Source: Armatimonadota bacterium (lineage in GTDB: Bacteria; Armatimonadota; UBA5829; DTLH01). Taken from it: a stretch of 31,973 nucleotides of DNA. A program made the position numbers and the translations under genes. Shown piece by piece: positions 1,401 through 31,393 of the stretch; within the stretch, counting starts at the first letter, position 1, and every line of letters starts with the position of its first letter. The stretch is from positions 1-31,973 of the forward strand of contig JBBRAE010000031.1 in assembly GCA_038207085.1 (NCBI GenBank). The letters run 5' to 3'. A model generated the notes under the pieces. It was given only the letters and a program-made list of their open reading frames with translations. It searched no databases and was not told the DNA's origin.

Positions 1401-2477
1401 TTGCCACTACTATACAAGAAAGATTGGGATGAGTCAAAGAAAAGGTTCGAAGCCTTTTGGAACAGGGACATAGCCGACAGACCGCTTCTCCTGATCGGTA
1501 CAGCGACAGATGGGTCGGGTGAGGTACCCCCGACGCCGCCAGCGACTCTTGAGGAGCGCTACACCGATGTCGATTACCTGCTTGCCGCCGTAGAGTACGG
1601 CTTGAAGCGGACTTACTACGCTGGGGACATGTTCCCGCACTTTGCGCCTTACCTTGGGGCAGGCTCCGTTGCGCTCTATCTTGGGTCTGAACCCGGATTC
1701 GCTGAGGACACTATTTGGTTCGAGAAGTGCATCGACGGACTGAAAGACCCCATTCCAAGCTTTGACCCGAACAACAAGTGGTGGCTGAAGACCCTTGAGA
1801 TAACCCAGAAGGCCGTCGAACGATTCCGTGGCAAGGCGCTCGTGACGTTTCCAGATCTTGTCGAGAATGTGGACATTATAGCAAGCTTGAGAGGCACCGA
1901 AGAGCTTCTCTTCGACCTGATAGAGTGCCCCGAGGACGTTCACAGGTGGCAAAAGGCTCTCCTGGACCTCTACTTCGAGTACTATGACAGGCTCTATGAT
2001 ATGATCAAAGAGGACGACGGAGGCTCGAGCTTTATAGCGTTCAACATTTGGGGACCGGGCAGGACTGCAAAGATCCAGTGTGACTTCTCGGCGATGATAT
2101 CCAAGCCGATGTTCGATGAGTTTGTCGCGCCGTATCTGGAAGAGCAGGCAAAGCGGCTCGATTACGTCTGCTACCATCTCGACGGGCCAGGCGCGCTCCA
2201 GCACGTCGACACCCTTGTCTCGCTGCCCAACATCGATGCGATCCAGTGGACCCCCGGTGCGGGCACTTCTGGGGTCGGTGACCCTGCTTGGATACCGCTT
2301 TACAAGAAGATCCGCGAAGCCGGCAAGTCGCTTGTTCTTCTTGGTCCATCGCCGGATGAAGCAGAGCATATCGCCCGTGAAGTCGGGCCCGAAGGAATTC
2401 TTTTCGCTACTGGCGCAGACTCACCCGAGCATGCCGATGAGATAGTTAAGAGCTCTTACAACTGGAAGAAGTCCTAA
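1401..2477 (+). CDS. Uroporphyrinogen decarboxylase / cobalamin-dependent methyltransferase (MtaA/CmuA)-like TIM-barrel protein
   Basis: 'LRGTEELLFDL', 'QCDFSAMIS..MFDEFV.P', 'YHLDG', 'IQWTPG' segments typical of this family. GGAGG at 1389-1393 precedes TTG at 1401. Confidence 0.75.
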   Translation: MPLLYKKDWDESKKRFEAFWNRDIADRPLLLIGTATDGSGEVPPTPPATLEERYTDVDYLLAAVEYGLKRTYYAGDMFPHFAPYLGAGSVALYLGSEPGFAEDTIWFEKCIDGLKDPIPSFDPNNKWWLKTLEITQKAVERFRGKALVTFPDLVENVDIIASLRGTEELLFDLIECPEDVHRWQKALLDLYFEYYDRLYDMIKEDDGGSSFIAFNIWGPGRTAKIQCDFSAMISKPMFDEFVAPYLEEQAKRLDYVCYHLDGPGALQHVDTLVSLPNIDAIQWTPGAGTSGVGDPAWIPLYKKIREAGKSLVLLGPSPDEAEHIAREVGPEGILFATGADSPEHADEIVKSSYNWKKS

Positions 2478-2503
2478 AAACGAGAGTTTCCTGTTGAGAT
2501 TAC

Positions 2504-2556
2504 GAAGTCGTCTGTTAGCTTCTTCTTTGGAAGGAGCCGGCAGGCGACTTCTTTGT
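2504..2556 (+). terminator. Intrinsic terminator-like hairpin
   Basis: GAAGTCGTCTGTTAGCTTCTTC / GAAGGAGCCGGCAGGCGACTTC stem with several G-U pairs that work only on the + strand, followed by TTTGTGTT, just after the stop at 2477. Confidence 0.6.
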
Positions 2557-2753
2557 GTTGGGGTAATGGTCCCAACGGCCTAGTGTTGGATTAACCCGGC
2601 TGTGGAAGATTCCACACATCTATCTACGAGGCCTCGCACGCTGTGAAACAGGTTGTCGTGCAGGAACTGTGCGGCTGAGACGTTTACCGATATGCCGATC
2701 GGAGCAAGTCCGGAGTCCTGCCGGCAGTACACTCAAGAAGCCGCATAGCTCCG

Positions 2754-3206
2754 CTACGTGCAGAATTTGTGGGCAGAGGGAGGCTCGTTCAGCACCAGCC
2801 AGAACAGGCCGAGCGTTCTTGCGGCTTCGACGAACTGGTTGTAATCGACCGGCTTTCTCACGTATGCGTTCGCGCCGTACCTGTAGCTTGAAACGACGTC
2901 ATCGTCTTCTTCGGAGGATGTCAGGACGATCACAGGCAGACAGCTTGTGCGGTCGTCGGCGCGTATCCGCTTCAGCACATCAATGCCCCCGATTTTGGGA
3001 AGCTTCAGATCGAGCAGAATCACCGATGGTTGGGCATCGGCCTCGCGGTCTGCATAGAGGCCGGTGTGAAAGAGATAATCTATCGCCTCCTCGCCGTCCC
3101 GCGCGACAACGATATCGTTGCAGAGCTTACTTTCTTCAAATGCAAGCATGGTGAGCTCCACATCGTCGGGATTGTTCTCAACAAGGAGTATCTCGCCGTC
3201 TCTTAA
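2754..3206 (-). CDS. Single-domain response regulator (CheY-like, Rcp1-type); start codon unclear
   Basis: ILLVENNPDDVELT...ILLDLKLPKIGG..VL...PVIVLTSS...GANAYVRKPVD. The conserved N-terminal strand lies upstream of the first GTG (3161), and an in-frame TAA at 3216-3218 leaves no ATG/GTG/TTG before it. Confidence 0.8.
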   Translation of the reverse strand, partial: LRDGEILLVENNPDDVELTMLAFEESKLCNDIVVARDGEEAIDYLFHTGLYADREADAQPSVILLDLKLPKIGGIDVLKRIRADDRTSCLPVIVLTSSEEDDDVVSSYRYGANAYVRKPVDYNQFVEAARTLGLFWLVLNEPPSAHKFCT

Positions 3207-8790: not shown

Positions 8791-8831
8791 TCTATCGTTG
8801 GCCCGGATTTGCAATCCGGGCCAACGATAGA
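8791..8831. repeat. REP-like perfect palindrome
   Basis: TCTATCGTTGGCCCGGATT-TGC-AATCCGGGCCAACGATAGA, 19-bp perfect stem; its 24-bp core recurs exactly at 13196-13219. Confidence 0.8.
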
Positions 8832-11503: not shown

Positions 11504-11663
11504 TAAAAATTATCCAATATACGTTCTCTAAATAATACCAATCCCCAGCCAATAACGTTCCTCTAAGAGACGGGGCATCCATTCATATTATATTAGGCAA
11601 GCGAACAGGAGATTCCTTCACACGTGATGCAGGAATTGTGTCGGCGGGGAACGCTCAGTAGAA

Positions 11664-13076
11664 TTATCCCAGCCTGTAATCCGTCGAAAGCAGTCTTAGC
11701 TGATCCCGATACTTGGCGACAGTCCTTCTGGCGATCTGTACGCCGTGGGTTTGCAGGCGTTCGGCGATTTCGTTGTCGGATAGCGGCTTGCCGTTCACTC
11801 GTTCGGTCGCGTAACGTCGGACAAGCTCTTTTACGGGAAGCGCCGCGTCGAACAGCACTTCAAATGGGATCACCTCGCCCGATGGCAGTTGGATCGACTT
11901 GCCATCGGTCGCCCGGCAGACGGTGGACTCGTGGAGGCCTATCTGCTGGGATATCTGCTTGCGGTTGATCGGCTTCAGGTGCTCGGCCCCGAGCTTGAAG
12001 AACTCGAACTGGCATTCTATCAGGTGCTCGGCGACCCGACGAAGCGACGAGCGGCGAAACTCGAGCGCTTCGATCAGCGACCGCGCGTTCTGCACGCTCT
12101 CTTTGATGGTCTGAACGTCCTCTTTGGAGTGCCCGTTCTTTTGGGTCATATCTGAGTAGAGGCTTGCGTAGACCTCGTCCATCCCGATCTTTCCAGCGAT
12201 TGGGTCGACCACTTCGGCGACAAGCCCAATTTCGGTCTCGCGGACGACGACATCGGGGGCAAGCCGGGCCTCACGCCTCGGTGCGAGCGCGTGCCAGGGG
12301 TCGCGGAACTGGCTTGCGGGGTAGGGGTTCAGTCTCTCTCGGATAAACCGAAACGCCGACTCGACGTCGCACTTCTCAAGCCCCATGCGCTTGGCGATCT
12401 CGTCTACCTTGATCTTGGAAAGAAGCTCCCAGTGCTCTGATATGATCACAGCGGCGCGTTCTTTCTCTTCTGAATCGGCCTCGATCTGCTCGGTCTGAAC
12501 CAGCAGGCACTCCTGAAGCGTCCGCGCCGCGATCCCCGGAGGGTCGAGCCGCTGGAGCTTGTAGAGCACCTCTTCCATCTGCGGCACGCTCATGCTGAAC
12601 TGCGAGGCGAGGTCGAACATCGACTCCCGGAGGTACCCGTCCTCATCTAGGCTGTCGACCAGAAATTCAGCGACCGGGATCATGTCTTCTGGGAAATTGG
12701 TGTGAATCTGCTGTCTCAGGTGGTCCGCGAGCGAACACGGCGTCGCGACGAAGGCGAAGGGTTCGAGCTCATCGTTATCGGGAGGTGGTGCGGTCCAGTT
12801 TTCTTCTTTCACCCACTCGTCGGTCTCGCGCTGTCCGGCTTCTTCGTCGGTAAATGCTCGCGACCCGCAGGAGGAGCAGGCGCCTTCCATCATAACCGAC
12901 CCACAGACCGGGCAGATGGCTTCGTCCTCGATGACGAGCGCAGGGTTATCGGCAAGCTCGGAGCGCACGAACTGGTGCAGCTCCTGCAGGCTCATCTTGA
13001 GAACCGCCTTGCCGAGCAGATGCTCCGGGACCATCCCCGGCGACTGTCTTTGAAATTGTCCAGCGCTAAATGCCAA
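11664..13076 (-). CDS. rpoN: RNA polymerase sigma-54 factor
   Basis: 'LDEDGYL', 'LDPPGIAAR.LQECL', HTH 'GLHESTVCRA', RpoN box 'ARRTVAKYR'. Confidence 0.93.
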   Translation of the reverse strand: MAFSAGQFQRQSPGMVPEHLLGKAVLKMSLQELHQFVRSELADNPALVIEDEAICPVCGSVMMEGACSSCGSRAFTDEEAGQRETDEWVKEENWTAPPPDNDELEPFAFVATPCSLADHLRQQIHTNFPEDMIPVAEFLVDSLDEDGYLRESMFDLASQFSMSVPQMEEVLYKLQRLDPPGIAARTLQECLLVQTEQIEADSEEKERAAVIISEHWELLSKIKVDEIAKRMGLEKCDVESAFRFIRERLNPYPASQFRDPWHALAPRREARLAPDVVVRETEIGLVAEVVDPIAGKIGMDEVYASLYSDMTQKNGHSKEDVQTIKESVQNARSLIEALEFRRSSLRRVAEHLIECQFEFFKLGAEHLKPINRKQISQQIGLHESTVCRATDGKSIQLPSGEVIPFEVLFDAALPVKELVRRYATERVNGKPLSDNEIAERLQTHGVQIARRTVAKYRDQLRLLSTDYRLG

Positions 13077-13151: not shown

Positions 13152-13331
13152 ATGTTGGCCCGGATAGCGCCGATGTTGCCCCGGATTGAGCCGATGTTGG
13201 CCCGGATTTGCAATCCGGGGCCCAAGGGCAGTCAAGGGATCTGTGATCCCGTTCTTTCGACTGTGCCCAATCTACCGGCATCACAGATGCCTGTCCGGCC
13301 CAAACGTCCCGGATAACATATCCGGACGAAC
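13152..13331. repeat. REP-like repeat cluster (21-bp tandem units plus palindromes)
   Basis: ATGTTGSCCCGGAT units at 13152, 13173, 13194; the third extends into CCCGGATTTGCAATCCGGG. Variant CGTCCCGGATAACATATCCGGACGAAC at 13305-13331 in the opposite orientation. Confidence 0.7.
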
Positions 13332-18844: not shown

Positions 18845-18886
18845 GAAGAGGCCCCGGTGTATGAAATCCCACACCGGGGCCTCTTC
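18845..18886. terminator. Long perfect hairpin (terminator or sRNA 3' stem)
   Basis: GAAGAGGCCCCGGTGT-(10 nt)-ACACCGGGGCCTCTTC, 16-bp perfect stem. Confidence 0.55.
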
Positions 18887-19664: not shown

Positions 19665-21809
19665 ATGCTGGACACTCAAACCATACTATTTGGCAGCGAC
19701 CCTCTCGAAGGGATCATGGCTGTGGAGCCTGCCGGGGACCGGGTGGCGATCTACCGGCGCGTCGACGGTGGAGTTGTGCGCGAAGATCGGGAGTTCACTC
19801 CCTGGCTCGTCGCGGCAGAGAAGCTCGACCTGCTGTCGGCCCGATGGACGGAGCTTGAGGGCGACGGCTACTACAGACAGCTTGCGACCTTCCCCAACTG
19901 GAACGCGGCCCGGGCGGCGCGCTTCAAGCTTCGGGATGAACACGCGAGCGCGATAGCCTACCCGAGCGCGGTCAAGCAGTATCTGACGATGTCCGGGCAG
20001 ACTATGTTCAAAGGTATGGGCTACGCAGACGTTCACAGGCTGCAGCTCGACATCGAGACGCTGGGGCTTTCTCCCGACCCGCCGGAGAACGCAATATTTC
20101 TCATCGCCATCTCCGACAACCGAGGCTTTGAGACTGTGCTTGAAGGCACTGAAAGAGATATGCTCACGCGGATGGTCGAGATCTTGCGCGAGCTTGACCC
20201 GGATGTGATCGAGGGGCACAACATCATCGGCTTCGACCTGCCCTACATTGCCAAACGCGCGGCGATGTGTGGGGTGAGAGTCGGCATCGGGCGCGATGGG
20301 TCGGAGATGACGGTCGGCTACGAGCAGAACACAAGCATCGGAGCGATCAGCCGCAGCCTTACTCCTTACCACGTGCATGGGCGGCATATCATCGACACCC
20401 TGATCGGGGTGCAGCGCTACGACATCTCCCGCGGGGTGCTCTCCAGCTACGGCTTGAAAGAGTGCGCGCGGGTGTTTGGCATCGCATGTGAGGGGCGCAT
20501 CGAGATTCCACACGAGAAGATCGCCGAGGTATGGGGGCGGGACCCGGAGAGGGTCAAGACCTACGCGCTCCAGGACGTGATCGAGACTCGCAGGCTCTCT
20601 GAGCTTGTGAGCCCGGCTGAGTTCTTCCTCACTGAGATGATCCCCGACAGCTACTCCAGCGTCGCGACTACCGGGACCGGCGAGAAGATCAACAGCATCC
20701 TCTTGCGCGAGTATCTGCGGCAGGGGAGAGCTATCCCGCGTCCGCAGCTTCCCCGCGAGGTGCCGGGAGGCTACACAGAGGTGCGGATGACGGGGCTTAT
20801 CAACCGCGTCGTGAAGTGCGACGTTGAGAGCCTCTACCCGAGCCTTATGATTACCCACTGCATCGCGCCGGCATCCGACAAACTTGGGATATTTATCCCC
20901 GCGCTCTATGAGCTCACGCGCAGGCGGATCGATGCCAAGGGACGGGCGAAAGCGTCGGCGGGGCAGGAGCGGGCTTATTGGGACGGGCTGCAGAGCTCGT
21001 TCAAGACCCTCATCAACAGCTTCTACGGCTACCTTGGAGCGGTGACCTTTAACTTCAACGACTATGACGCCGCCGAGCGCATCACCACCGAGGGGCAGGC
21101 GACGGTCAAGAGGATCGCCGAGGAGCTTGTGGCTACAGGTAGCGGCGTGATTGAGATCGACACGGACGGCGTCTATTTCCAGCCGCCGGAGGGCGTCGAC
21201 GGGGAGGAGTCCGAGACCCGCTACATCGAGGAGATCGGGCGCGTGCTCCCTGCGGGGATCAGGCTTGCGCATGACGGGCGCTACCAGGCGATGCTCTCGC
21301 TCAAGGTCAAGAATTACGTGCTCGTCGGCTATAGGGGCGAGCGGGTGTTCAGGGGCGCGTCGATGCGTTCGCGGGCTGATGAGCTCTTTGGGCGCGAGTT
21401 TATCGCTCGTGCGGTCGACCTCTTGGTCGAGGGCAAACCGGGCGAGGTCGCGGAGCTTTATCGGCAGATCGCAGGCGACATCGAGGCCAAGCGGCTGCCA
21501 CTTCTCAAGTTTGTGCGGCGTGAGAGGATCACGGAAAAGACCTTCACATCCGCCGCCCGCCGCAGGCTCGCTGAAGCGGCGCGTGGGGCGTCGGTGGGCG
21601 AGTATATCAGCGTTTATCAGCGCGCTGACGGCTCGATCGGGCGCGCGGAGAACTACGCGAACGACGAGGATACGCGCTACCTGCTGGACAAGCTCTATAA
21701 GTTTGCGAGCAGGCTCCGGGAGGCGTTTGGGAGCGAGTTTGACGCGCTCTTCCCGAAGCCATCGGCCAAGACCAAGGCAGAGGCGGCCGGGCAGCAGACG
21801 CTGTTCTGA
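19665..21809 (+). CDS. polB: Family B DNA polymerase with 3'-5' exonuclease
   Basis: ExoI LDIET, ExoII HNIIGFDLPY, ExoIII YALQD; pol motifs DVESLYPS, KTLINSFYGY, IDTDG, KNY. Confidence 0.9.
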   Translation: MLDTQTILFGSDPLEGIMAVEPAGDRVAIYRRVDGGVVREDREFTPWLVAAEKLDLLSARWTELEGDGYYRQLATFPNWNAARAARFKLRDEHASAIAYPSAVKQYLTMSGQTMFKGMGYADVHRLQLDIETLGLSPDPPENAIFLIAISDNRGFETVLEGTERDMLTRMVEILRELDPDVIEGHNIIGFDLPYIAKRAAMCGVRVGIGRDGSEMTVGYEQNTSIGAISRSLTPYHVHGRHIIDTLIGVQRYDISRGVLSSYGLKECARVFGIACEGRIEIPHEKIAEVWGRDPERVKTYALQDVIETRRLSELVSPAEFFLTEMIPDSYSSVATTGTGEKINSILLREYLRQGRAIPRPQLPREVPGGYTEVRMTGLINRVVKCDVESLYPSLMITHCIAPASDKLGIFIPALYELTRRRIDAKGRAKASAGQERAYWDGLQSSFKTLINSFYGYLGAVTFNFNDYDAAERITTEGQATVKRIAEELVATGSGVIEIDTDGVYFQPPEGVDGEESETRYIEEIGRVLPAGIRLAHDGRYQAMLSLKVKNYVLVGYRGERVFRGASMRSRADELFGREFIARAVDLLVEGKPGEVAELYRQIAGDIEAKRLPLLKFVRRERITEKTFTSAARRRLAEAARGASVGEYISVYQRADGSIGRAENYANDEDTRYLLDKLYKFASRLREAFGSEFDALFPKPSAKTKAEAAGQQTLF

Positions 21810-22587
21810 TAGAGCGGTAATTTCGGGGTTCTGGTGAAACGATTTCGTGCTCGCTTTGAGCTTGGGGGGATTTCGTTTTGTCGGTTTTTGTATGGTGGGC
21901 TCATTTGTTTCCTGAACCACTGAGGTGATGAATGTTTTGAGGGCACTGAATGTCTTCACTTGGTGATGTCTCCTTTCTGGTGAGTTAGCTGTGGTGCTGG
22001 GTGTATAGCCTCTGGATGGCTTCGGGGTTGGTATGGAGTGCGGCATCTTGATGCCGCTTTGTTTTTCGGCTGCAGACTGCTTCTTCGGGCGTCAGGGTAT
22101 GGCTGTCGCCCGAAAGCAAGGCGCCGTCGAGACGACGCACTCCGAAAAGTATTCTCCCATATTATAAGACTAACTGCCAGGTTAATCAGTCATTTCAACG
22201 CAAGCTGACGCCACATCTCTGCCAAAGGTCTATCAGCCTCCCAACTCACCATACTCAGCAAGACGACTCCCGCATATCCATTCCGGTGTTGATCCCTCTC
22301 GTAGCTGGGACAGACTCGATTTGCTATAACAGGTTGACTGCCGTACATGCTATAATATGGCCGAGATACTCGCGTTCTCTTTGAGGGTCAATCCGTGAAC
22401 GAAGCCGATACCTGCAGAATCCACATAACGCCCGCACTCCATAGCGCCGGAGTGGGATACCATCATTCGAACTTCACCGAGGACTACGAGGTGAACTCGA
22501 AGCGTCTAATGGCCAAGTGATGCAGCATCATGCACAAACATCCGTGAGAATGGTAGCGGGCTATCGCACACTTCAGGAGGGTTTCTG

Positions 22588-24351
22588 ATGTCTTCAGCAC
22601 GTTTCAGAGTCGATCCGCGTCTTGCGACGCTTCTGGGTGAGAGCTATCGATCTACCGAACGAGCTCTTAAGGAGTTGGTAGACAACGCCTGGGATGCCGA
22701 TGCGCAGAACGTCTGGATCGAGCTACCGGACATTGTATCGGATCAGCCTATAGTTATCCGCGACGACGGCAGCGGCATGACCGAGCAGGAAATCCATCAG
22801 GAGTACCTCGCTGTCGCGAGCGATAGACGCACGCGCAAAGGCACGACGACCGTTATAAAGAAGCGCACCGTCAAGGGTCGCAGGGGCATCGGGAAGTTTG
22901 CCGGCCTGGTGGCGGCGAGCACGATGACTGTCGAAACGAAAGTGAAAGGCGTCATAACCTCGCTCACAATGGCGAAATCCGCTATCCTTGAAGTAGCCAA
23001 AGACCTGGAGGAGGTCGATCTGCCGGTTCAGATTTCGGCCTGCGGCAGCGACGAACATGGAACGACAATCACACTCAGCGACCTCAATCAGAACCTCGAA
23101 GCGCCTAAGCCCGATGTCCTAAAGGAATTGCTCGCTCTCGAATACGGTCGAGATCGTGATTTTACCATTTTCGTGAATGGCGAGCAGTTGGGTTTCCAGG
23201 ACATCCCAGGCGAGGCTTTCTCGTACAATGACGAACTGCCGGGAGTTGGTAAAGTAAATCTGCAGTTCAAGGTTATGGAGAGCGGCAGACCGCTGGCAAA
23301 GGCTGGCATAGTGACCCGCGTTGATGGCAAGATAGTCGGTAAGCCGAGTTTCTTCGGTCTGGACGAGCGAGATGATTTTCCCAAGAAGTTGCTCCACAGG
23401 ATAAGCGGAGAAATAGCCGCCGACGGCCTCGAAGGCGACGTGACAGCAGACTGGGGAGCGATCATTGAGAACAGCAAGGCGCGACAGGCAGTGCAAGAAT
23501 GGGCTCAGGAGCACCTGAATCGAGATGTAGAAGTTGTCTTTGAGCGCGAGATCAAGACCGCACAGGCTCAACTGAACCGCCAGATTCGGGAACGTCTGAG
23601 GCAGCTACCTGAGTACAGACGCCAGTTCGCTCAAGAAGCGCTGGACAGGGTAATGCGAAAGTTCTCCGACTTGCCAATTGAGAAAAGGAATATCCTGGCG
23701 TCACTCGTACTCGATGCTATGGAGAAAGATGAGTATTTCCAGGTATGTCAGAGGATCTACGCTGCCCGCGACGGTGACATCTCCAACTTGGCCGACGCGC
23801 TCAACTCATTCGGCTTGGTGGCTATGACCACAATGGCATACTCCGCTCACTCTAGAATAGTATTGCTGAACGGTCTCGACAATTTGGCACTTAATCCGGC
23901 TACTCTCGAAATGGAGATGCACAAAGCCCTCGAATCCAACCTGTGGGTTCTCGGCCCGGAATACTCGCTGATGGCCTCCAATCAGACTCTCAAGAAGACC
24001 ATTGAGCAATTTTCCGACAAGAAGTTCTCTGGTGCGAGGGCCAACAAACGGCCCGATCTGCTCCTGGCACAGGATATGCCCGATCGCATGCTGTTGGTCG
24101 AGTTCAAGAAACCGTCAGACTCCCTGACCCGTGACCACGAAAGCCAAGCCAAGAAATACAGGGACGATCTGCAAACGAAGTTCCCTGGCAAGAAGATCGA
24201 CATAGTGCTCATCGGCGGCCAGAAAAGCGCCGGTATCACACACGTTGACGGCGACACTCGGTTTTCTTCGTACAAAGAAGTCATCTCCAACGCCCGTAAT
24301 CAGATGGAGTGGCTGCTCCGGGAGTTGCTGAGCGTCAACCAGAACGACTAA
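22588..24351 (+). CDS. GHKL (HATPase_c_3 / MORC-like) ATPase fused to a C-terminal PD-(D/E)XK nuclease-like domain
   Basis: ALKELVDNAWDADA, IRDDGSGM, GRRGIGK, HGTTITL; C-terminal E..MH..L..NLW...RPDLLL...LLVEFKKP...QAKKY. AGGAGG SD. Confidence 0.82.
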   Translation: MSSARFRVDPRLATLLGESYRSTERALKELVDNAWDADAQNVWIELPDIVSDQPIVIRDDGSGMTEQEIHQEYLAVASDRRTRKGTTTVIKKRTVKGRRGIGKFAGLVAASTMTVETKVKGVITSLTMAKSAILEVAKDLEEVDLPVQISACGSDEHGTTITLSDLNQNLEAPKPDVLKELLALEYGRDRDFTIFVNGEQLGFQDIPGEAFSYNDELPGVGKVNLQFKVMESGRPLAKAGIVTRVDGKIVGKPSFFGLDERDDFPKKLLHRISGEIAADGLEGDVTADWGAIIENSKARQAVQEWAQEHLNRDVEVVFEREIKTAQAQLNRQIRERLRQLPEYRRQFAQEALDRVMRKFSDLPIEKRNILASLVLDAMEKDEYFQVCQRIYAARDGDISNLADALNSFGLVAMTTMAYSAHSRIVLLNGLDNLALNPATLEMEMHKALESNLWVLGPEYSLMASNQTLKKTIEQFSDKKFSGARANKRPDLLLAQDMPDRMLLVEFKKPSDSLTRDHESQAKKYRDDLQTKFPGKKIDIVLIGGQKSAGITHVDGDTRFSSYKEVISNARNQMEWLLRELLSVNQND

Positions 24352-25114: not shown

Positions 25115-26182
25115 TTATTCTTCCGGCCTGCGTTCATTGCGGAAACGACGACGAAAAAGCTCCACCATATCTTCCGCCACTGCTGCCCAGTCGGCGGGTG
25201 ACGCTGGCATATCGCGTTGCTCTGGTGAACCGGGCACGATCACTGGCGTAGACCCATCACCGGGAAACATATGTCCCGTGTGTTGCTCACCTGAAGGGCG
25301 CGGGCCGAACATTCTGTGTCCCATATTGAGCAGTCCCGCCGTCACATACACCGTCCCAGCATATCCATATACAGTCTGATATGTGTCAGCAGAAAACGCC
25401 GCTAACCTCGTCAGGATATCCCTGACATCCTCCTGGTCAACCAAGAAGAGGTTGCCCATATCAAGGTGAGACTTCCTCTCATGCCTCAGGACCTTGGCGG
25501 AGACCAATAATCCACCACAGGTGGCAATCACGAGAGACTGCGGTTGTCGTCCTCCGTTGGACTGAAAGAGACGCAGACTATCCTCGTCAACAGCCTCATC
25601 AAGGCCAAGTTTTCGGTCGAAGAAGCCATGCTTGCCATAGGTCAAGCTCTGCGCCATTGTGCGCTTCATGTCTTCATCGCCAACTTGCTTGGTGCTGAGT
25701 CGAACGCCTGTGTTTGTAGGCAGACAGGACAGCACTACGGTCGTATCGTCACCCGACCACGTTCGATCACTGAAGATGGCCTGGAATTCCGCCGATGCAT
25801 CGGTAGCACGTCTCATTTGAGAACCCGCCTCCTTCTGATACCGGCTAAGCGCCTTTACGATCTCATCTTTCAGTTCCTCAGGGTTGCCAAACGAGCCTCT
25901 GAATAGACCGTTCCCATAATCTTCGACCTTCTTGACGAAATCCTGTTGGCGTTTCTCCTTACTCTCAGTAGAAACGAATGCAAACCGAGGTTTGCAGCGC
26001 CGGACAGCCTCATCATACTCCTGCTCCGTTACCGATATTCCATCTGGAGTTATCCAGCCATATCGCGGCCCGAGTATGAGTATGTAGACTTCGCTACTGG
26101 CGACTTCCGAAAGGCAGGCTTGCTCTGGGGTGTGGGGTCGTGCGCCGAAATCCTCGGCCATGATAGGAGTGTGGTGCAGAAT
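25115..26182 (-). pseudogene. DUF4062-domain protein, N-terminally truncated
   Basis: 'HTPIMAEDFGARP..PEQACL.EV..SEVYILILG.RYG...SVTEQEY.EA' is DUF4062-like, but the usual leading xFISS strand is missing: in-frame TGA TGA at 26192-26197. May still be translated from ATG 26161. Confidence 0.7.
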
Positions 26183-26184
26183 AT

Positions 26185-26858
26185 GAACCCCTCATCATTC
26201 AGGAACCTGGAGACTTTCGTGTGCGTGTACCCTTGTAGCCTTAGGTCAACCAGTCGGCGCATCGTCTCCGCATGCTCGTTTAGCACATAGCTATCGTCGT
26301 TTCTTGTGAGCCAGAACACCGGCTGGGCATGGAGTTTCCCATTCTTCACGGCAGCGAGCGCCGCCGCGCTTACCCATTCGGAGATATTTTCCGATTCCAT
26401 CTCCGCAACGGCAAGGAGGATGGTCGTCATCAGCTTCCCAGACGGAGTGCTGGTATCTATCTTCTGCTTTATGCAATGGACGCTGCAATCGGTCTTCCCG
26501 AACTCCTCGAAGAGATGCAGTCCCTCCTGGACGTTACGCGCGAACCTCGACATTTTAAAGAAGATAATGGAGTCGTAGTCGCCACTTCTGGCTTCCTCAA
26601 GAAGGGCACCCAACCTGGCCGCTTTTGCCACTTGAGGCGCGAGGCGGACTTGTCGATGTCAACGTGCCTGAGTGATGCCTCTTCGTCAAGCTGGTAACCC
26701 TTCATGTGCAGCCGCACATAGTCCCTGGCGGCGTCGAGCTGTATCTCTGGTGAGAGGAAATCTCCGTTCCCCTCACCTTTGCCTCTTACTCCCTGGTGGC
26801 TGACCCTGATGTAGCATCGGGCCACCCTTGTTGTCTCTGTGTCTGTGCTCTTCCGCAT
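26185..26858 (-). pseudogene. Large serine recombinase, frameshifted and C-terminally truncated
   Basis: YIRVS catalytic motif, 'SPEIQ', 'KRPG' in one frame; continues 'LGALLEEARSG...KMSRFARN...IDTSTPSGKLM..ILLAVAEMESENISE' in another (1-nt loss at ~26612). Homology stops at 'FLNDEGF' ~26185. Confidence 0.85.
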
Positions 26859-26962
26859 GTTTTATTCTTTCTCTCCAATTCTTCTCGAAACGTTGTATAA
26901 GGCTCGATAACTACATGAACTCGATGTTCACTAACTAACACTTTGAGAGGAAATAGAAGAAA

Positions 26963-27160
26963 ATGACAAAAGAAGAATCCTGCACAGAACGAGCCGACGT
27001 AATCGCCGCTATCCTGTCGGCCAACTCCCTGATTGATGAAGCCCAAGCGACCGAGGTCTACAATATCCTCGATGCCGCCAGAATACTCCTGGCCATCCCG
27101 AGAGGCCAGCGAATAGTCGTCAGCAAGTCTGATTACCCGCAAGGGCCATCGGGCCATTAG
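26963..27160 (+). CDS. Small hypothetical protein (65 aa)
   Basis: GAGAGG SD-like sequence upstream of ATG; amphipathic helical-looking sequence; divergent from the left recombinase. Confidence 0.4.
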   Translation: MTKEESCTERADVIAAILSANSLIDEAQATEVYNILDAARILLAIPRGQRIVVSKSDYPQGPSGH

Positions 27161-27778
27161 ACCCGCGTCCCCATAGACACTCACCTGGGCAGAGGGCTTC
27201 CTGACCCCAACCCAGGTGAGCGACGGCACCGGCCCGAGAGGGCCGTGATACATTTCACTGGATATATGTAATCTGGAACCCGCATTCATCTGTGTCAATT
27301 CTGTGATGTCGCCGCTTCCGCTTGGCATCAGTTCGTTTTGCATAGTCTTCGTCCTCATCCCTTTCTCTCTGTGAACCCAACCGTAGTTTCAATGTTGTTA
27401 TTGTTCGGCTTTGGGTTTATCTGCATCGGCCCCGAAAGATTTGTCTGATCTTTCGGAGGGCAGCGAGGGGACGGCCTGAGCCGGGCGCAGCCCATGGAGC
27501 GGTTCGCCCCTCTCGGTACCTGATAAGAAGGGCAATGGAGCAACCGACCCGCGCTTTTCGGCGCGGGTCGGTTGCTGGACGAGCGGTAGATTATCTACCG
27601 CCTTGGATGAGCTTGCGCTGAAGAAGAGTTGCCTGTAAGATGAGGATGTGCAACGGGCGGAGAAATCCGCCCCAAGGCCCTACTGGGCCATGTTCAAGGC
27701 TGGCGCAATAGCGCCACCGACCTGAAGGTTGCCCCTGCCAGGGCAGCCTTCAGTCCATCTCTACAGGAACTACTTTCA
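27130..27778 (+). ncRNA. Candidate large structured non-coding RNA
   Basis: About a dozen stems, three GNRA tetraloops (GCAA 27139, GAGA 27236, GAAA 27662), G-U wobbles compatible with the + strand, and a long-range helix 27623-27642 / 27756-27776 closing four hairpins. Confidence 0.6.
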
Positions 27779-29005
27779 TCTCGCTCCCCTCCTCAAGGCC
27801 CGTCTCTCCTCGCCTGGGGTAAGGGGAATGCCGAGCATGTTCTTCAGTTTCGTGACGGCGGTCTCGACAGCCGCACGCTGCGCGCTCATCCTGCCGCTGA
27901 TTACGACGCTGCCCTGCCAGATATCGGCATCCCGCGTCCAGTCCACATCGCGCGCAAGCGCCTCTATCAGCCTCTCCCGCTCGGAGCTGGGGTAGTTCCT
28001 GATGTAATATCCCATCCTCCCGATGACGGTCAGGCCCGTTCCGGTGCAGTGAACGAACCTGTGCCGAAGGAGATTGGTGTCCACGGTGCCAAGAGCGGGG
28101 TCACCGGCCCCGAGTATCTGCGACCATTCAGAGTTGGATAAACTGAAGAAGTTGAAGAAATCCACGACGTATTTCATGTGCTCATCAACCGCCTCGCTGC
28201 TCCCAAGCATCTTCGTCATGTCCTTCTTGAGGGACACGGTGGCCTGGGCGGAGTCGCCCGTAAGTATCTCTGCCACCGCGATCCTAAGCTGGTTCAAGGT
28301 GAAGAGGTTGATGCTCGATTTCCCCACGCTTTTCGAGACCTGCTCGACCCTACCACGGAATACCTCGACCTCCCGCTCCACCGCACGGACGAGCCTCGCG
28401 AGCATGTCCCTGTGGTCGTAGGCCGTAAGCAGGCTCTGGGGAACGGGCCGCGATTGCGCGCAGTCATAGAACAACTGATGGATAATCTCCATATCACCTT
28501 CAATCACGATGGTGACGCCGATCCCGTCGCCGCCGAGTGCTTCCTTCTGCATCAGGGCGTTTCGTATTCCCTGCACTCTATGCTGGCCGTCTGTTATGTT
28601 GTAGACGACCGATGTCGGTAAGACCACAACCCCGAGCTTCACCGTCGATGAGGTTTTCGGCACATGGCAGTGAATCGGCTCTTGCAGGCAGAGTGAGAGC
28701 GGCGGCAGCACATAATCATCCTGACTCGTGAGGTAGGCGGTGATGGCCCGATGATGCTCGGGAAGGAGCGGGCGGTTGTAGTGCTCGTGCGCGTCCCCTC
28801 CGCGTGCGAGGTTATCGATCCGCACTCTCTCGGCGATGTACCGGAGCGGGAATGCCGTCGTCATATAGCTCCTCTTGCCTTGACCGTATAGGATAGCCGG
28901 AGCAATGGTTGCCATACTGGTAGCGGCTTCCTCGGCGGCGGCTCTGAATGTGTCTTCATAGGTCTGGTGCTCGACCTGAACTAGGGCCGGGCTTTGCTGT
29001 TCCAT
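27776..29005 (-). CDS. DGQHR-domain protein, DndB family (ParB/sulfiredoxin-like fold)
   Basis: 'NRPL...H..AI..YL....DYVLPPL', 'ITDGQHR..GI..AL', 'QLF.D', 'YDHRD', 'LFTL'. GGAGG SD supports ATG 29005 rather than 29137. Confidence 0.85.
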   Translation of the reverse strand: MEQQSPALVQVEHQTYEDTFRAAAEEAATSMATIAPAILYGQGKRSYMTTAFPLRYIAERVRIDNLARGGDAHEHYNRPLLPEHHRAITAYLTSQDDYVLPPLSLCLQEPIHCHVPKTSSTVKLGVVVLPTSVVYNITDGQHRVQGIRNALMQKEALGGDGIGVTIVIEGDMEIIHQLFYDCAQSRPVPQSLLTAYDHRDMLARLVRAVEREVEVFRGRVEQVSKSVGKSSINLFTLNQLRIAVAEILTGDSAQATVSLKKDMTKMLGSSEAVDEHMKYVVDFFNFFSLSNSEWSQILGAGDPALGTVDTNLLRHRFVHCTGTGLTVIGRMGYYIRNYPSSERERLIEALARDVDWTRDADIWQGSVVISGRMSAQRAAVETAVTKLKNMLGIPLTPGEERRALRRGAR

Positions 29006-29523: not shown

Positions 29524-31393
29524 ATGATAGAGACAATGACAGAGACATGGGAGACTGGCGGTCCACCGGGGCTGCGCCAGAAAGACCCGAAGTTTGCGAA
29601 GGTAGCGATCCAGGCCCGCAAGAGCAACAAAACGGAGGGGCGCAGTAAGAGTTTGCGGGGAGCAGGAGGAGTTCTGCAAGAAGGTATGCCAGTACTACGG
29701 GTTTGACCCGGACAACATAAGCATATACGAGGAAGATGAAGGCTATAAAGGGGAGTGGTATTGGCAGGATGCCGAAAGCCGCAATCCGAAGCCCTGGAGG
29801 CCAGTGCTCACCCAACTGGTGAACGACATATTGGCTGAAAAGATAGATGTAGTCGTGGTATGGCGCTCAGACCGCATCGTTCGAGACAGCGGCGTGTGCG
29901 ACTCTCTGATGAAGCTCTTCAGGGCGAAGGGCACTCGTTTCATCTGCGGTAACAGAGATATGGACATAACCTCTGCTACCGGCCTCTACCAGGCGATGGT
30001 AGAGGCTGCCAACAACAGGCGGTATCGCGACCAGACGAGCGAAGACATTATGCGAGACCATGACTTCAAAGCGGCTCTGGGCATGTTCAGTCGCAATCCG
30101 AGCTGCCTTGGTTACCGAAGTAAGGGCAAAGGCAGCCAGGCAGTAGAGGTCATACCTGAAGAGATAGAGTTGGTCAACAGAATATTCAGGCTCTTCGTCC
30201 AGGGAGAGGGCGAAGAAGGCCCCCTCGGCATCAATGCCATCTGTCGGAAGCTTATGGACGAGGGGACGAAGCTAGCTCGCGGTGCGAAGGGGCATATTCC
30301 AAAGCACGAGAACAAAGTCCACACTTCTCAAATACGGACGATACTCAGCAATTGCATGTACATCGGCAGATGGCGGCACAGGGGCAAAGAATACGAGTGC
30401 GACCTGGTGCTTGTTCCTTCCTCCGACGGCACAGATAAGTGGCAGACCGCTGTGCCGGTCGCACTGTATGAAGCTGCGCAGGAGAAGCTCAGGCTTTCAG
30501 ACCGACCAGGGAAGAGGTCTCTTACGAGCGAGCACCTGCTGACGGGCCTGATGGTCTGTGCGCGATGCGGCAGGCCGCTTCAAGTCAACTACAGGCAGTA
30601 TAAGGACAAGGACGGCAATGAGACACGGCCACCGCGTCGGACTTACCTCTGCACCAACTCCAGGCCCCCTGGCTACTGTAAGAAGTGGGGGATGAAGCTC
30701 GTTCAGGAGCCTGTCCTTGATGAGTGGGTGATACAGGAGCTTGCTCCGCTTCTTGAGGCCGAGATACGGGAGATGAGAACCGCATCGGGCAGGGACGCGG
30801 ATGTGCAGACCCTCGCCGAGCTTGAGAGAAAGCTGAAGGAAGCTCGGGAGAAAGAGGGGCCAGCACTTGCTGAGTGTATCAGGACAATGGACAAGGAGCA
30901 GATCGAGATGGTCGCGAAACACCTTCGGGGCGAGCGCGAGCATCTTCAGCGTCGCGCCGAGGAAATCCGAGCCAGGTTCGCCATGCAGGAGACGGTAGCG
31001 CCAGACCTTTCTGCCGCCGACCTTGCAGGAATGCCGAAGGGGGCGGTGAAAGACGCGCTCCGGCGCGCGATCCAGTGGATAGCGGTCGGGAGCGAGGGAG
31101 TGACTGTGCTAACTTCCTGGGGAACCTACATAGGGGCAACATTCCAGGAAATCCCCAAGAGAACGTATTTCAGACCCGACACTCGGCGGGGCATAAACCC
31201 GCCATCACCAGCCGCCTGTCTGCGATGCCCAACATGGCTGCCATCGCCAGAGGACTTTATCAAGGGACGGCGCGACAGTATGGGCAAGAGGGCGGTCGTC
31301 CTTTCCGATAATAAGATATTGCCCGACCCTGCCCAGACGAACGGCGAACCAGTCCAAGATGTGGAGTTATCCATAGAGGTCATAGACCTGTAA
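29524..31393 (+). pseudogene. Large serine recombinase (resolvase + recombinase + Zn ribbon + coiled coil) with one frameshift
   Basis: AAAGGAG SD; 'KVAIQARKS...SKSLR' then, after an extra G in GGGG 29657-29660, 'EQEEFCK...RPVL..LV..I....IDVVVVWRSDRIVRD', 'LGY', 'ILSNCMYIG', 'LLTGLMVCARCG...YLC'. Repaired length ~622 aa. Confidence 0.88.

Follow-up and report, generated by a model that had tools for sequence, protein, structure and literature searches.

This study concerns a stretch of 31,973 nucleotides (nt) from an Armatimonadota bacterium (contig JBBRAE010000031.1 of assembly GCA_038207085.1), hereafter called the window, and within it a region of about 650 nt at positions 27130 to 27778, which a sequence-only reading had flagged as a densely structured RNA of the + strand. 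The flagged interval is bounded by p65, an open reading frame (ORF) of 65 amino acids (aa) on the + strand, and by the 3' end of a DndB-like DGQHR gene on the - strand, the convergent orientation of RNA candidate and DndB-like gene being read directly from the sequence. We found that the flagged 650 bases are probably a composite and not one large RNA. The features of the locus are listed below, with stem lengths in base pairs (bp).

26050..26858, - strand: LSR2, remnant of a second serine recombinase gene, frameshifted and cut short
26963..27160, + strand: p65, 65-aa ORF of the upstream unit, which shares its strand with the RNA candidate
27161..27538, strand unassigned: probable lineage-specific spacer with local hairpins at 27180-27220, 27231-27244, 27373-27418, 27432-27456 and 27464-27515
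27539..27576, + strand: hairpin T1, a 16-bp perfect stem
27583..27601, + strand: hairpin T1b, 8-9 bp
27613..27641, + strand: promoter-like motif, with -35 hexamer TTGCGC (27613-27618), a 17-nt spacer and -10 hexamer TAAGAT (27636-27641)
27648..27762, + strand: candidate small RNA, both ends predicted, ~115 nt in the window and ~70 nt in other loci
27655..27672, + strand: hairpin A, 7 bp with a GAAA loop, found in four of four loci
27673..27718, + strand: insertion of ~46 nt seen only in the window, with two extra hairpins (27676-27689 and 27702-27715)
27722..27753, + strand: hairpin B, 13 bp, with a 6-nt loop that holds an invariant UGC
27776..29005, - strand: DndB-like DGQHR gene, convergent with the RNA candidate; 409 aa when read from Met45 of the listed ORF
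29524..31393, + strand: LSR1, large serine recombinase gene, divergent from the DndB-like gene

With a profile of 24 DndB-like protein homologues, six loci (L001 to L006) were obtained from the genome collection. The DndB-like protein of the window is 73% identical to that of L001, 65% to that of L004 and 62% to that of L002, and 35-44% identical to those of L003, L005 and L006. A divergently oriented LSR1 is common to the window, L001, L004 and L002 (57-67% identity), and the recombinase is absent from the three distant loci. The related loci differ in the genes beyond the 3' end of the DndB-like gene: L004 also has a p65 relative (41%) and a degraded second recombinase, L001 lacks p65 and has a full-length LSR2 (563 aa) on the same strand as the DndB-like gene, and L002 has neither. 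At the place in L002 where p65 and LSR2 would be, downstream of the small-RNA element, there is a 125-aa ORF (11557-11934, + strand in that locus), of which the C-terminal half reads by eye as an excisionase-type helix-turn-helix. The comparative claims below rest on four sequences, namely the window, L001, L004 and L002, which form two close pairs (window/L001 and L004/L002).

An nhmmer search of 26700-27800 against the six loci gave two significant matches, one to L004 (E 2.9e-16) over window positions 26706-27155, which takes in the recombinase start and p65 and does not cover the spacer, and one to L001 (E 1.8e-10) over 27541-27791. Only 27539-27775, the last ~240 bases of the flagged 650, has counterparts in the three related loci, where it keeps its place next to the 3' end of the DndB-like gene, also in L001 and L002, whose downstream genes differ. 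This conserved element is absent from L003, L005 and L006, which carry at the corresponding place a single perfect GC-rich hairpin instead. A blastn search of 26900-27800 against plasmid and phage collections returned no match.

In an alignment of the DndB-proximal regions of these loci and the window, hairpin B is paired in 51 of 52 cells; three of its 13 pairs (6 cells) differ on both sides, and six cells are G-U. Its covariation score was reached by 9 of 500 shuffles, and slid registers were only 22-46% paired. Similarly, comparison of the window with L001 showed both sides changed in 3 of the 16 pairs of T1 and in 3 of the 8 pairs of T1b, so that the two hairpins together have 44 of 48 cells paired and 6 of 24 pairs double-changed (score reached by 7 of 500 shuffles; slid registers 31-46% paired). 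No counterpart of T1b was seen in L004 and L002; at the place of T1 each of them has one strong hairpin that cannot be aligned with it, and a T-rich run comes after this hairpin, immediately ahead of the promoter-like motif. These compensatory changes give moderate comparative evidence of a structured RNA under selection in hairpin B and in T1/T1b, at a depth of four sequences for the former and two for the latter. A covariance model of hairpin B and its tail gave 56-72 bits for the four sites on which it was trained and 17-30 bits for their images on the reverse strand, found the element once per locus and nothing else above 12 bits in 155 kb, and did not find it in the distant loci. A REP- or MITE-like repeated palindrome (repetitive extragenic palindromic element or miniature inverted-repeat transposable element) was considered and rejected: the region has no repeat in the 32-kb window, and the model has one site per locus.

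The strand on which selection may act was examined through the non-Watson-Crick pairs. Over hairpins A and B in the four loci, all nine transition-type pairs of this kind are G-U on the + strand and A-C on the strand of the DndB-like mRNA, and as two of these wobbles were probably inherited jointly by L004 and L002, they amount to about seven independent events, all in one direction. Three of them are in hairpin A (two in L004 and one in L002), the arms of which were set explicitly for counting, since MAFFT misaligned this hairpin. Hairpins A and B are only 4 nt apart in the three other loci, which do not have the insertion of the window. The candidate RNAs of L001, L004 and L002, as a set, fold with z of -4.54, -4.21 and -3.70, and the + strand folds better than the - strand in four of four loci, as the following minimum free energies indicate (+ strand, then - strand).

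Window: -69.8 and -68.3 kcal/mol
L001: -42.5 and -36.2 kcal/mol
L004: -40.9 and -27.6 kcal/mol
L002: -31.3 and -23.6 kcal/mol

Between T1b and hairpin A stands a motif whose form, TTGC-N2-N17-TAnnAT, is invariant in the four loci while the spacer sequence differs, and which looks like a sigma-70-type promoter on the + strand.

Window: TTGCGC-17-TAAGAT
L001: TTGCGC-17-TAAAAT
L004: TTGCAG-17-TATCAT
L002: TTGCAT-17-TAATAT

A relaxed pattern of the motif occurs once on the + strand of the 32-kb window and not at all on the - strand; on both strands of the three loci (~119 kb of strand) it occurs seven times, three of the matches being the sites themselves. A generic promoter scan, which requires four of six matches per hexamer, calls the L004 site (as TTTGCA-18-TATCAT).

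Folding of the whole flagged region is in excess of chance without preference for a strand: the 649 nt of the + strand reach -298.3 kcal/mol (z -8.27), where 20 shuffles give -236.5 +/- 7.5, and the reverse strand -298.5 kcal/mol (z -8.21). Such a strong z can stem from a few perfect hairpins and is not by itself a sign of one large RNA. In a GC-corrected scan of the whole window, based on regression against GC content with 150-nt windows, six consecutive windows over 27451-27850 give + strand z values between -2.4 and -3.3, the structure of 27101-27300 belongs mostly to the - strand (z -3.7 and -2.6), and 27251-27450 is below average in structure (z +0.9 to +1.4). Folded alone, 27642-27775 has a z of -6.57, with none of 200 shuffles as good, and 27161-27538 a z of -2.13 on the + strand (5 of 100 shuffles as good) and -3.46 on the - strand. 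Every stem named in the sequence-only reading was found in its place by direct reading and by a repeat search, which gave the following arms.

27539-27554 with 27561-27576: 16 nt, 100%
27722-27734 with 27741-27753: 13 nt, 92%
27180-27189 with 27211-27220: 10 nt, 100%
27432-27440 with 27448-27456: 9 nt, 100%
27583-27591 with 27593-27601: 9 nt, 100%

With reference to these results, the description of the region as densely structured holds for the excess over shuffles and fails as to its evenness, the structure being patchy and 27251-27450 unstructured. The start of the interval (~30 nt, 27130-27160), and with it the CCC-GCAA-GGG stem, belongs to the p65 ORF. That G-U wobbles favour the + strand agrees with the comparison of homologues for A and B, the 3'-most conserved hairpins, and does not extend to the upstream part. 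Covariation among homologues, which had been proposed as the evidence to look for, is present in the 3' hairpins (B, T1 and T1b), which are kept by compensatory changes. As for a single conserved RNA of ~650 nt, the data speak against it: only 27541-27791 aligns (with L001), 27161-27538 has no counterpart, and the promoter-like motif stands mid-way. The multi-way domain that had been drawn at 27623-27776 was not upheld either. Its putative closing helix, which the minimum-energy fold forms between the -10 region and the tail that follows hairpin B, has only 27 of 36 cells paired at homologous columns. Of its 11 pairs, 6 are lost in one or more of the sequences; the window keeps the helix and L001 does so in part, without covariation. 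No known RNA family had been recognised, and indeed no Rfam 15 family matched the window at its gathering threshold. The best sub-threshold match in 26700-28000 is Leu_leader on the - strand (23 bits against a cut-off of 50), and the Rfam matches in the six loci are tRNAs only. The placing of the region as non-coding sequence in a mobile-element module was borne out; the overlapping ORFs 26786-27358 (-), 27355-27543 (-) and 27729-27995 (+) have no Pfam family and are taken as spurious. Of the proposed large non-coding RNA or set of RNAs, the latter wording is nearer the evidence, and the former is only partly supported.

The upstream part of the region is of a different kind. The spacer 27161-27538 has no counterpart in the six loci by blastn, nhmmer, tblastx or shared 8-mers, and no match in the plasmid or phage collections; likewise, 27100-27612 compared with the loci by tblastx and k-mers gave chance-level matches only, no 8-mer being common to three of the four spacers. 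GAACCC, found twice in both the window and the L004 spacer, was judged a chance occurrence. The equivalent of the spacer in L001 is largely occupied by unrelated ORFs. In L004 the counterpart of the spacer, 279 nt long, is likewise structured (z -5.3 and -4.8), much of this coming from the T1-type hairpin. We read 27161-27538 as a lineage-specific spacer, probably untranslated-region sequence with local hairpins. The protein p65 upstream of it has no Pfam, NCBIfam or PADLOC family, and a search of the protein database returned only p65 itself; its sole relative found is the 68-aa ORF at the corresponding position in L004 (41% over 56 aa). In the unstructured middle, two small hydrophobic ORFs with ATG starts lie on the + strand (27306-27374 and 27392-27448; 22 and 18 aa, with grand averages of hydropathy of 1.9 and 1.6). 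We considered them as type I toxins and set this aside, as both lack a ribosome-binding site, are without counterparts in L001, L002 and L004 and share the strand of the RNA; they are probably chance ORFs. A type I toxin-antitoxin pair was rejected also for the convergent partner, which is a 409-aa DndB-like protein and not a small hydrophobic toxin peptide.

Taken together, we hold with middling confidence that the conserved block comprises terminators of the upstream unit, followed by a promoter and a convergent cis-antisense small RNA of ~70-115 nt. On this account, T1 and T1b would end an upstream + strand unit with p65, T1 likely being its terminator. The putative sigma-70-type promoter at 27613-27641 would start a short + strand RNA at about 27648, the start being placed 6-9 nt after the -10 hexamer. 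This RNA would comprise a short leader and hairpins A and B, the last serving as its intrinsic terminator about 22 nt before the DndB-like stop codon on the opposite strand. As there is no terminator for the DndB-like gene ahead of the conserved block, and as LSR2 (degraded in L004 and in the window) is the next gene on the same strand in L001, the DndB-like mRNA or its read-through into LSR2 should hold the exact complement of the small RNA. The small RNA could then act as a cis-antisense regulator that pairs with the DndB-like or read-through transcript and lowers or tunes its stability or the read-through. Promoter activity, the RNA ends and RNA function are all matters that we infer from sequence comparison. 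A scan with RNAduplex for trans targets of the small RNA in each module gave no recurring position, long non-specific duplexes dominating the energies.

Several observations weigh against the proposed small RNA. Four sequences in two close pairs provide few independent events, namely about seven wobbles and 3 + 6 pairs changed on both sides. Of the six positions of the -35 hexamer, only three agree with the TTGACA consensus, and the generic promoter scan does not call the motif in the window, L001 or L002. Double changes are absent from hairpin A, which is also missing from the RNAfold minimum-energy structure of L004. Hairpin B is without a clear U-tract in the window and in L001 (TCCATCTCT and TCCAACCCT), where the generic scan calls no terminator, and in L004 it is flanked by AAAA and TTATTT, which fits a plain bidirectional terminator. 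Again, T1 of L001 contains one A-C pair when read on the + strand, equal to a G-U on the - strand, and for the candidate RNA of the window the fold energies of the two strands are nearly equal. Both recombinase genes also look broken in the window, where the system may be out of use. With regard to the tail of hairpin B in the other pair, the scan calls it terminator-like in L002, and in L004 the hairpin is followed by TTATTTGT, which is T-rich by eye.

The main rival, which we regard as possible but rather unlikely, is that T1, T1b, A and B are stacked intrinsic terminators, some of them perhaps bidirectional, and insulators between the convergent p65 and DndB-like units, that there is no small RNA, and that conservation of the promoter-like motif is incidental or has another role. 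All four hairpins are indeed GC-rich stem-loops in a convergent intergenic region, the distant loci have their single perfect hairpin there, hairpin B stands between an A-run and a T-run in L004 and is called terminator-like in L002, and comparable perfect hairpins occur elsewhere between genes of the window, at 8791-8831 (19 bp) and 18845-18886 (16 bp). Such an arrangement, however, leaves unexplained the eight invariant, promoter-spaced positions between T1b and hairpin A in all four loci, and does not account for the retention of hairpin A at a distance of just 4 nt from hairpin B in L001, L004 and L002; the nine-of-nine bias to G-U points to selection on the + strand, directed toward the DndB-like gene, and not on that gene's own mRNA. 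We consider improbable one large structured + strand non-coding RNA of at least 600 nt over 27130-27778, in which the conserved 3' block would be the core and the 5' part a fast-evolving periphery. The whole-region z of -8.3, the structured spacer of L004 (z -5.3) and the lack of an Rfam match would fit such an RNA, but 27161-27538 has no homologue in six loci whose DndB-like proteins are 35-73% identical to that of the window, barely exceeds its shuffles in folding on the + strand (z -2.13), folds better on the other, and includes the unstructured 27251-27450. Moreover, its equivalent space in L001 is largely given to unrelated ORFs, the helix that would close the 3' domain is not conserved (27 of 36 cells paired), and the T-rich tails after the T1-type hairpins of L001, L004 and L002 would end such a transcript.

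A function at the DNA level, with the palindromes as a DndB-like operator or as an attachment or accessory site for the serine recombinases, appears very improbable. It is suggested by hairpin B being a 13-bp palindrome with an invariant centre, by the recombinase genes that flank the locus, and by Salmonella DndB, a regulator which one report describes as binding palindromic TACG-N10-CGTA motifs (PMC4507180). Against this, all asymmetric positions (nine of nine) are G-T with the same orientation, as expected of RNA pairing and not of a duplex-DNA site, and three pairs of hairpin B and six of T1/T1b are double-changed between loci with flanking proteins still 62-73% identical. The site lies at the gene's 3' end rather than at its promoter, the covariance model finds no second copy as a partner site, and TACG-N10-CGTA does not occur within 26-30 kb; the whole window has eight matches with at most one mismatch against 6.6 expected, none of them in the module. 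A further possibility, which we find equally doubtful, is that the hairpin array 27539-27775, perhaps with the 5' part, is a dedicated RNA component of an unrecognised element with two recombinases and a DndB-like protein; the DndB-like protein might, for example, bind or cleave the RNA and so switch the recombinases between integration and excision, in which case the RNA would go beyond routine antisense control.

The protein of the gene convergent with the candidate small RNA matches Pfam DndB (E 2e-66) and passes the cut-off of TIGR03187 for DGQHR proteins, and it stays below that of the NCBIfam DndB equivalog (139 bits against 328). Its start was placed at 29005 because most homologues are 407-411 aa long, and a GGAGGA ribosome-binding site precedes this start. 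The closest protein homologue is 81% identical, and about 20 further metagenomic homologues are known at the protein level; tblastn against the plasmid and phage collections found only canonical DndB, at 25-29% identity. Canonical DndB is the regulator of dnd phosphorothioation operons, and the window protein resembles it in carrying the DndB/DGQHR domain; it differs in its low identity, its score below the equivalog cut-off and its linkage to serine recombinases, and no dndCDE genes were found near it in the window. We presume that the protein has the ParB-like fold attributed to it. Its AlphaFold model (mean predicted local distance difference test score 84) gave no PDB fold match at E <= 0.001, the nearest relevant structure being SspE (template-modelling score 0.23), a PDB sequence search gave nothing meaningful (E 0.86), and the predicted fold offers no hint of RNA binding. 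DndB is also ascribed a HEPN domain in a published account (PMC3632139). In the literature searched, we found no publication that connects DndB-like genes with a small RNA or with serine recombinases; the DGQHR literature yielded nothing on an RNA or recombinase connection, and one paper on large serine recombinases with antisense RNA uses the latter as a knock-down tool only.

Both recombinase genes of the window are interrupted. The N-terminus of LSR1, with the catalytic ARKS motif, is in the frame 29524-29706 and the remainder of the gene in another frame (29606-31393); LSR1 is uninterrupted in L004 and L002, and the L001 copy has an in-frame stop and a C-terminal frame change. LSR2 is split by a frameshift into 26469-26858 and 26050-26631 (- strand). 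These frameshifts may reflect decay of the element or indel errors of the assembly. The DUF4062 protein gene in the region 25115-26858 matches its Pfam family at positions 32-82 of 82 only; it is without its N-terminus and overlaps the LSR2 remnant, suggesting an insertion or rearrangement there. We also observed a tRNA-Glu gene in L001 (11748-11822) that overlaps the 3' end of LSR2, and a tRNA-Pro gene in L002 (6845-6922) about 780 nt past LSR1; the window and L004 have no tRNA gene. From the position of these tRNA genes, which look like its integration sites, the recombinase and DndB-like module resembles a compact integrative element.

The window itself is a segment of a bacterial chromosome, with genes for sigma-54, an NtrC-type activator, DAHP synthase and encapsulin. 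Island-type genes begin at ~19.6 kb and include those for the DUF4062 protein, the two serine recombinases and the DndB-like protein. The island cargo adjoining the module, within 19665-24351, comprises a family B DNA polymerase (714 aa) and a GHKL ATPase (587 aa) with a Shedu/VRR-NUC-like, nuclease-like end, which resembles the BbrUII/HgiDII restriction enzymes. A long ORF antisense to the polymerase gene (19686-22046, - strand) has no Pfam family and is probably spurious. Elsewhere, a 24-nt exact repeat is found at 8797-8820 and 13196-13219, the first copy being part of the 19-bp perfect hairpin 8791-8831; the intergenic regions that hold the two copies fold strongly, the lowest z in the GC-corrected scan being -4.1, and the repeat may be a REP-like palindromic element. 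The 16-bp perfect hairpin 18845-18886 lies in the divergent intergenic region between the encapsulin and GNAT acetyltransferase genes. The intergenic stretch 2470-2675 (+ strand), between ORFs 1338-2477 and 2669-3154, has a z of -4.55 (none of 200 shuffles as good) and holds a long hairpin followed by a T-rich run, without an Rfam match.

If the candidate is real, it would represent a small RNA family not described before, associated with a distinct branch of DndB-like proteins that is linked to recombinases. It would offer a handle on how the recombinase or the DndB-like gene is controlled, and a new covariance model with which to annotate genomes. It would not be a new class of RNA; the element is undescribed and of an ordinary, familiar kind, convergent antisense RNAs and terminator stacks being common on mobile elements. 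Large structured non-coding RNAs of mobile elements and defence loci, such as OLE, GOLLD, ROOL and HEARO/omega RNA, are conserved, covarying and multi-domain over hundreds of nt. The window element is like them in being intergenic, strongly folding by prediction and associated with a mobile element, and unlike them in that only ~240 nt are conserved, as independent hairpins, without an Rfam match. With intrinsic or bidirectional terminators it shares the GC-rich stem-loops, the convergent intergenic setting and the T-rich tails after hairpin B in L002 and L004; it differs from them in that a conserved promoter-like motif interrupts a series of four hairpins, and in the weak U-tract of the window and L001. 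The third comparison is with the 3'-overlapping convergent antisense RNAs, such as RatA/txpA and SR4/bsrG of prophage-like elements of Bacillus subtilis and GadY/gadX of E. coli. The partner in the window is a 409-aa DndB-like protein and not a small hydrophobic toxin peptide, the overlap of transcripts is a prediction here, and the element has no sequence or Rfam similarity to these RNAs. As predicted, however, it is like them in being short, with its own promoter, directed toward the 3' end of its neighbour, built of a few hairpins of which the last would be the terminator, carried on a mobile element and expected to be perfectly complementary to its partner mRNA.

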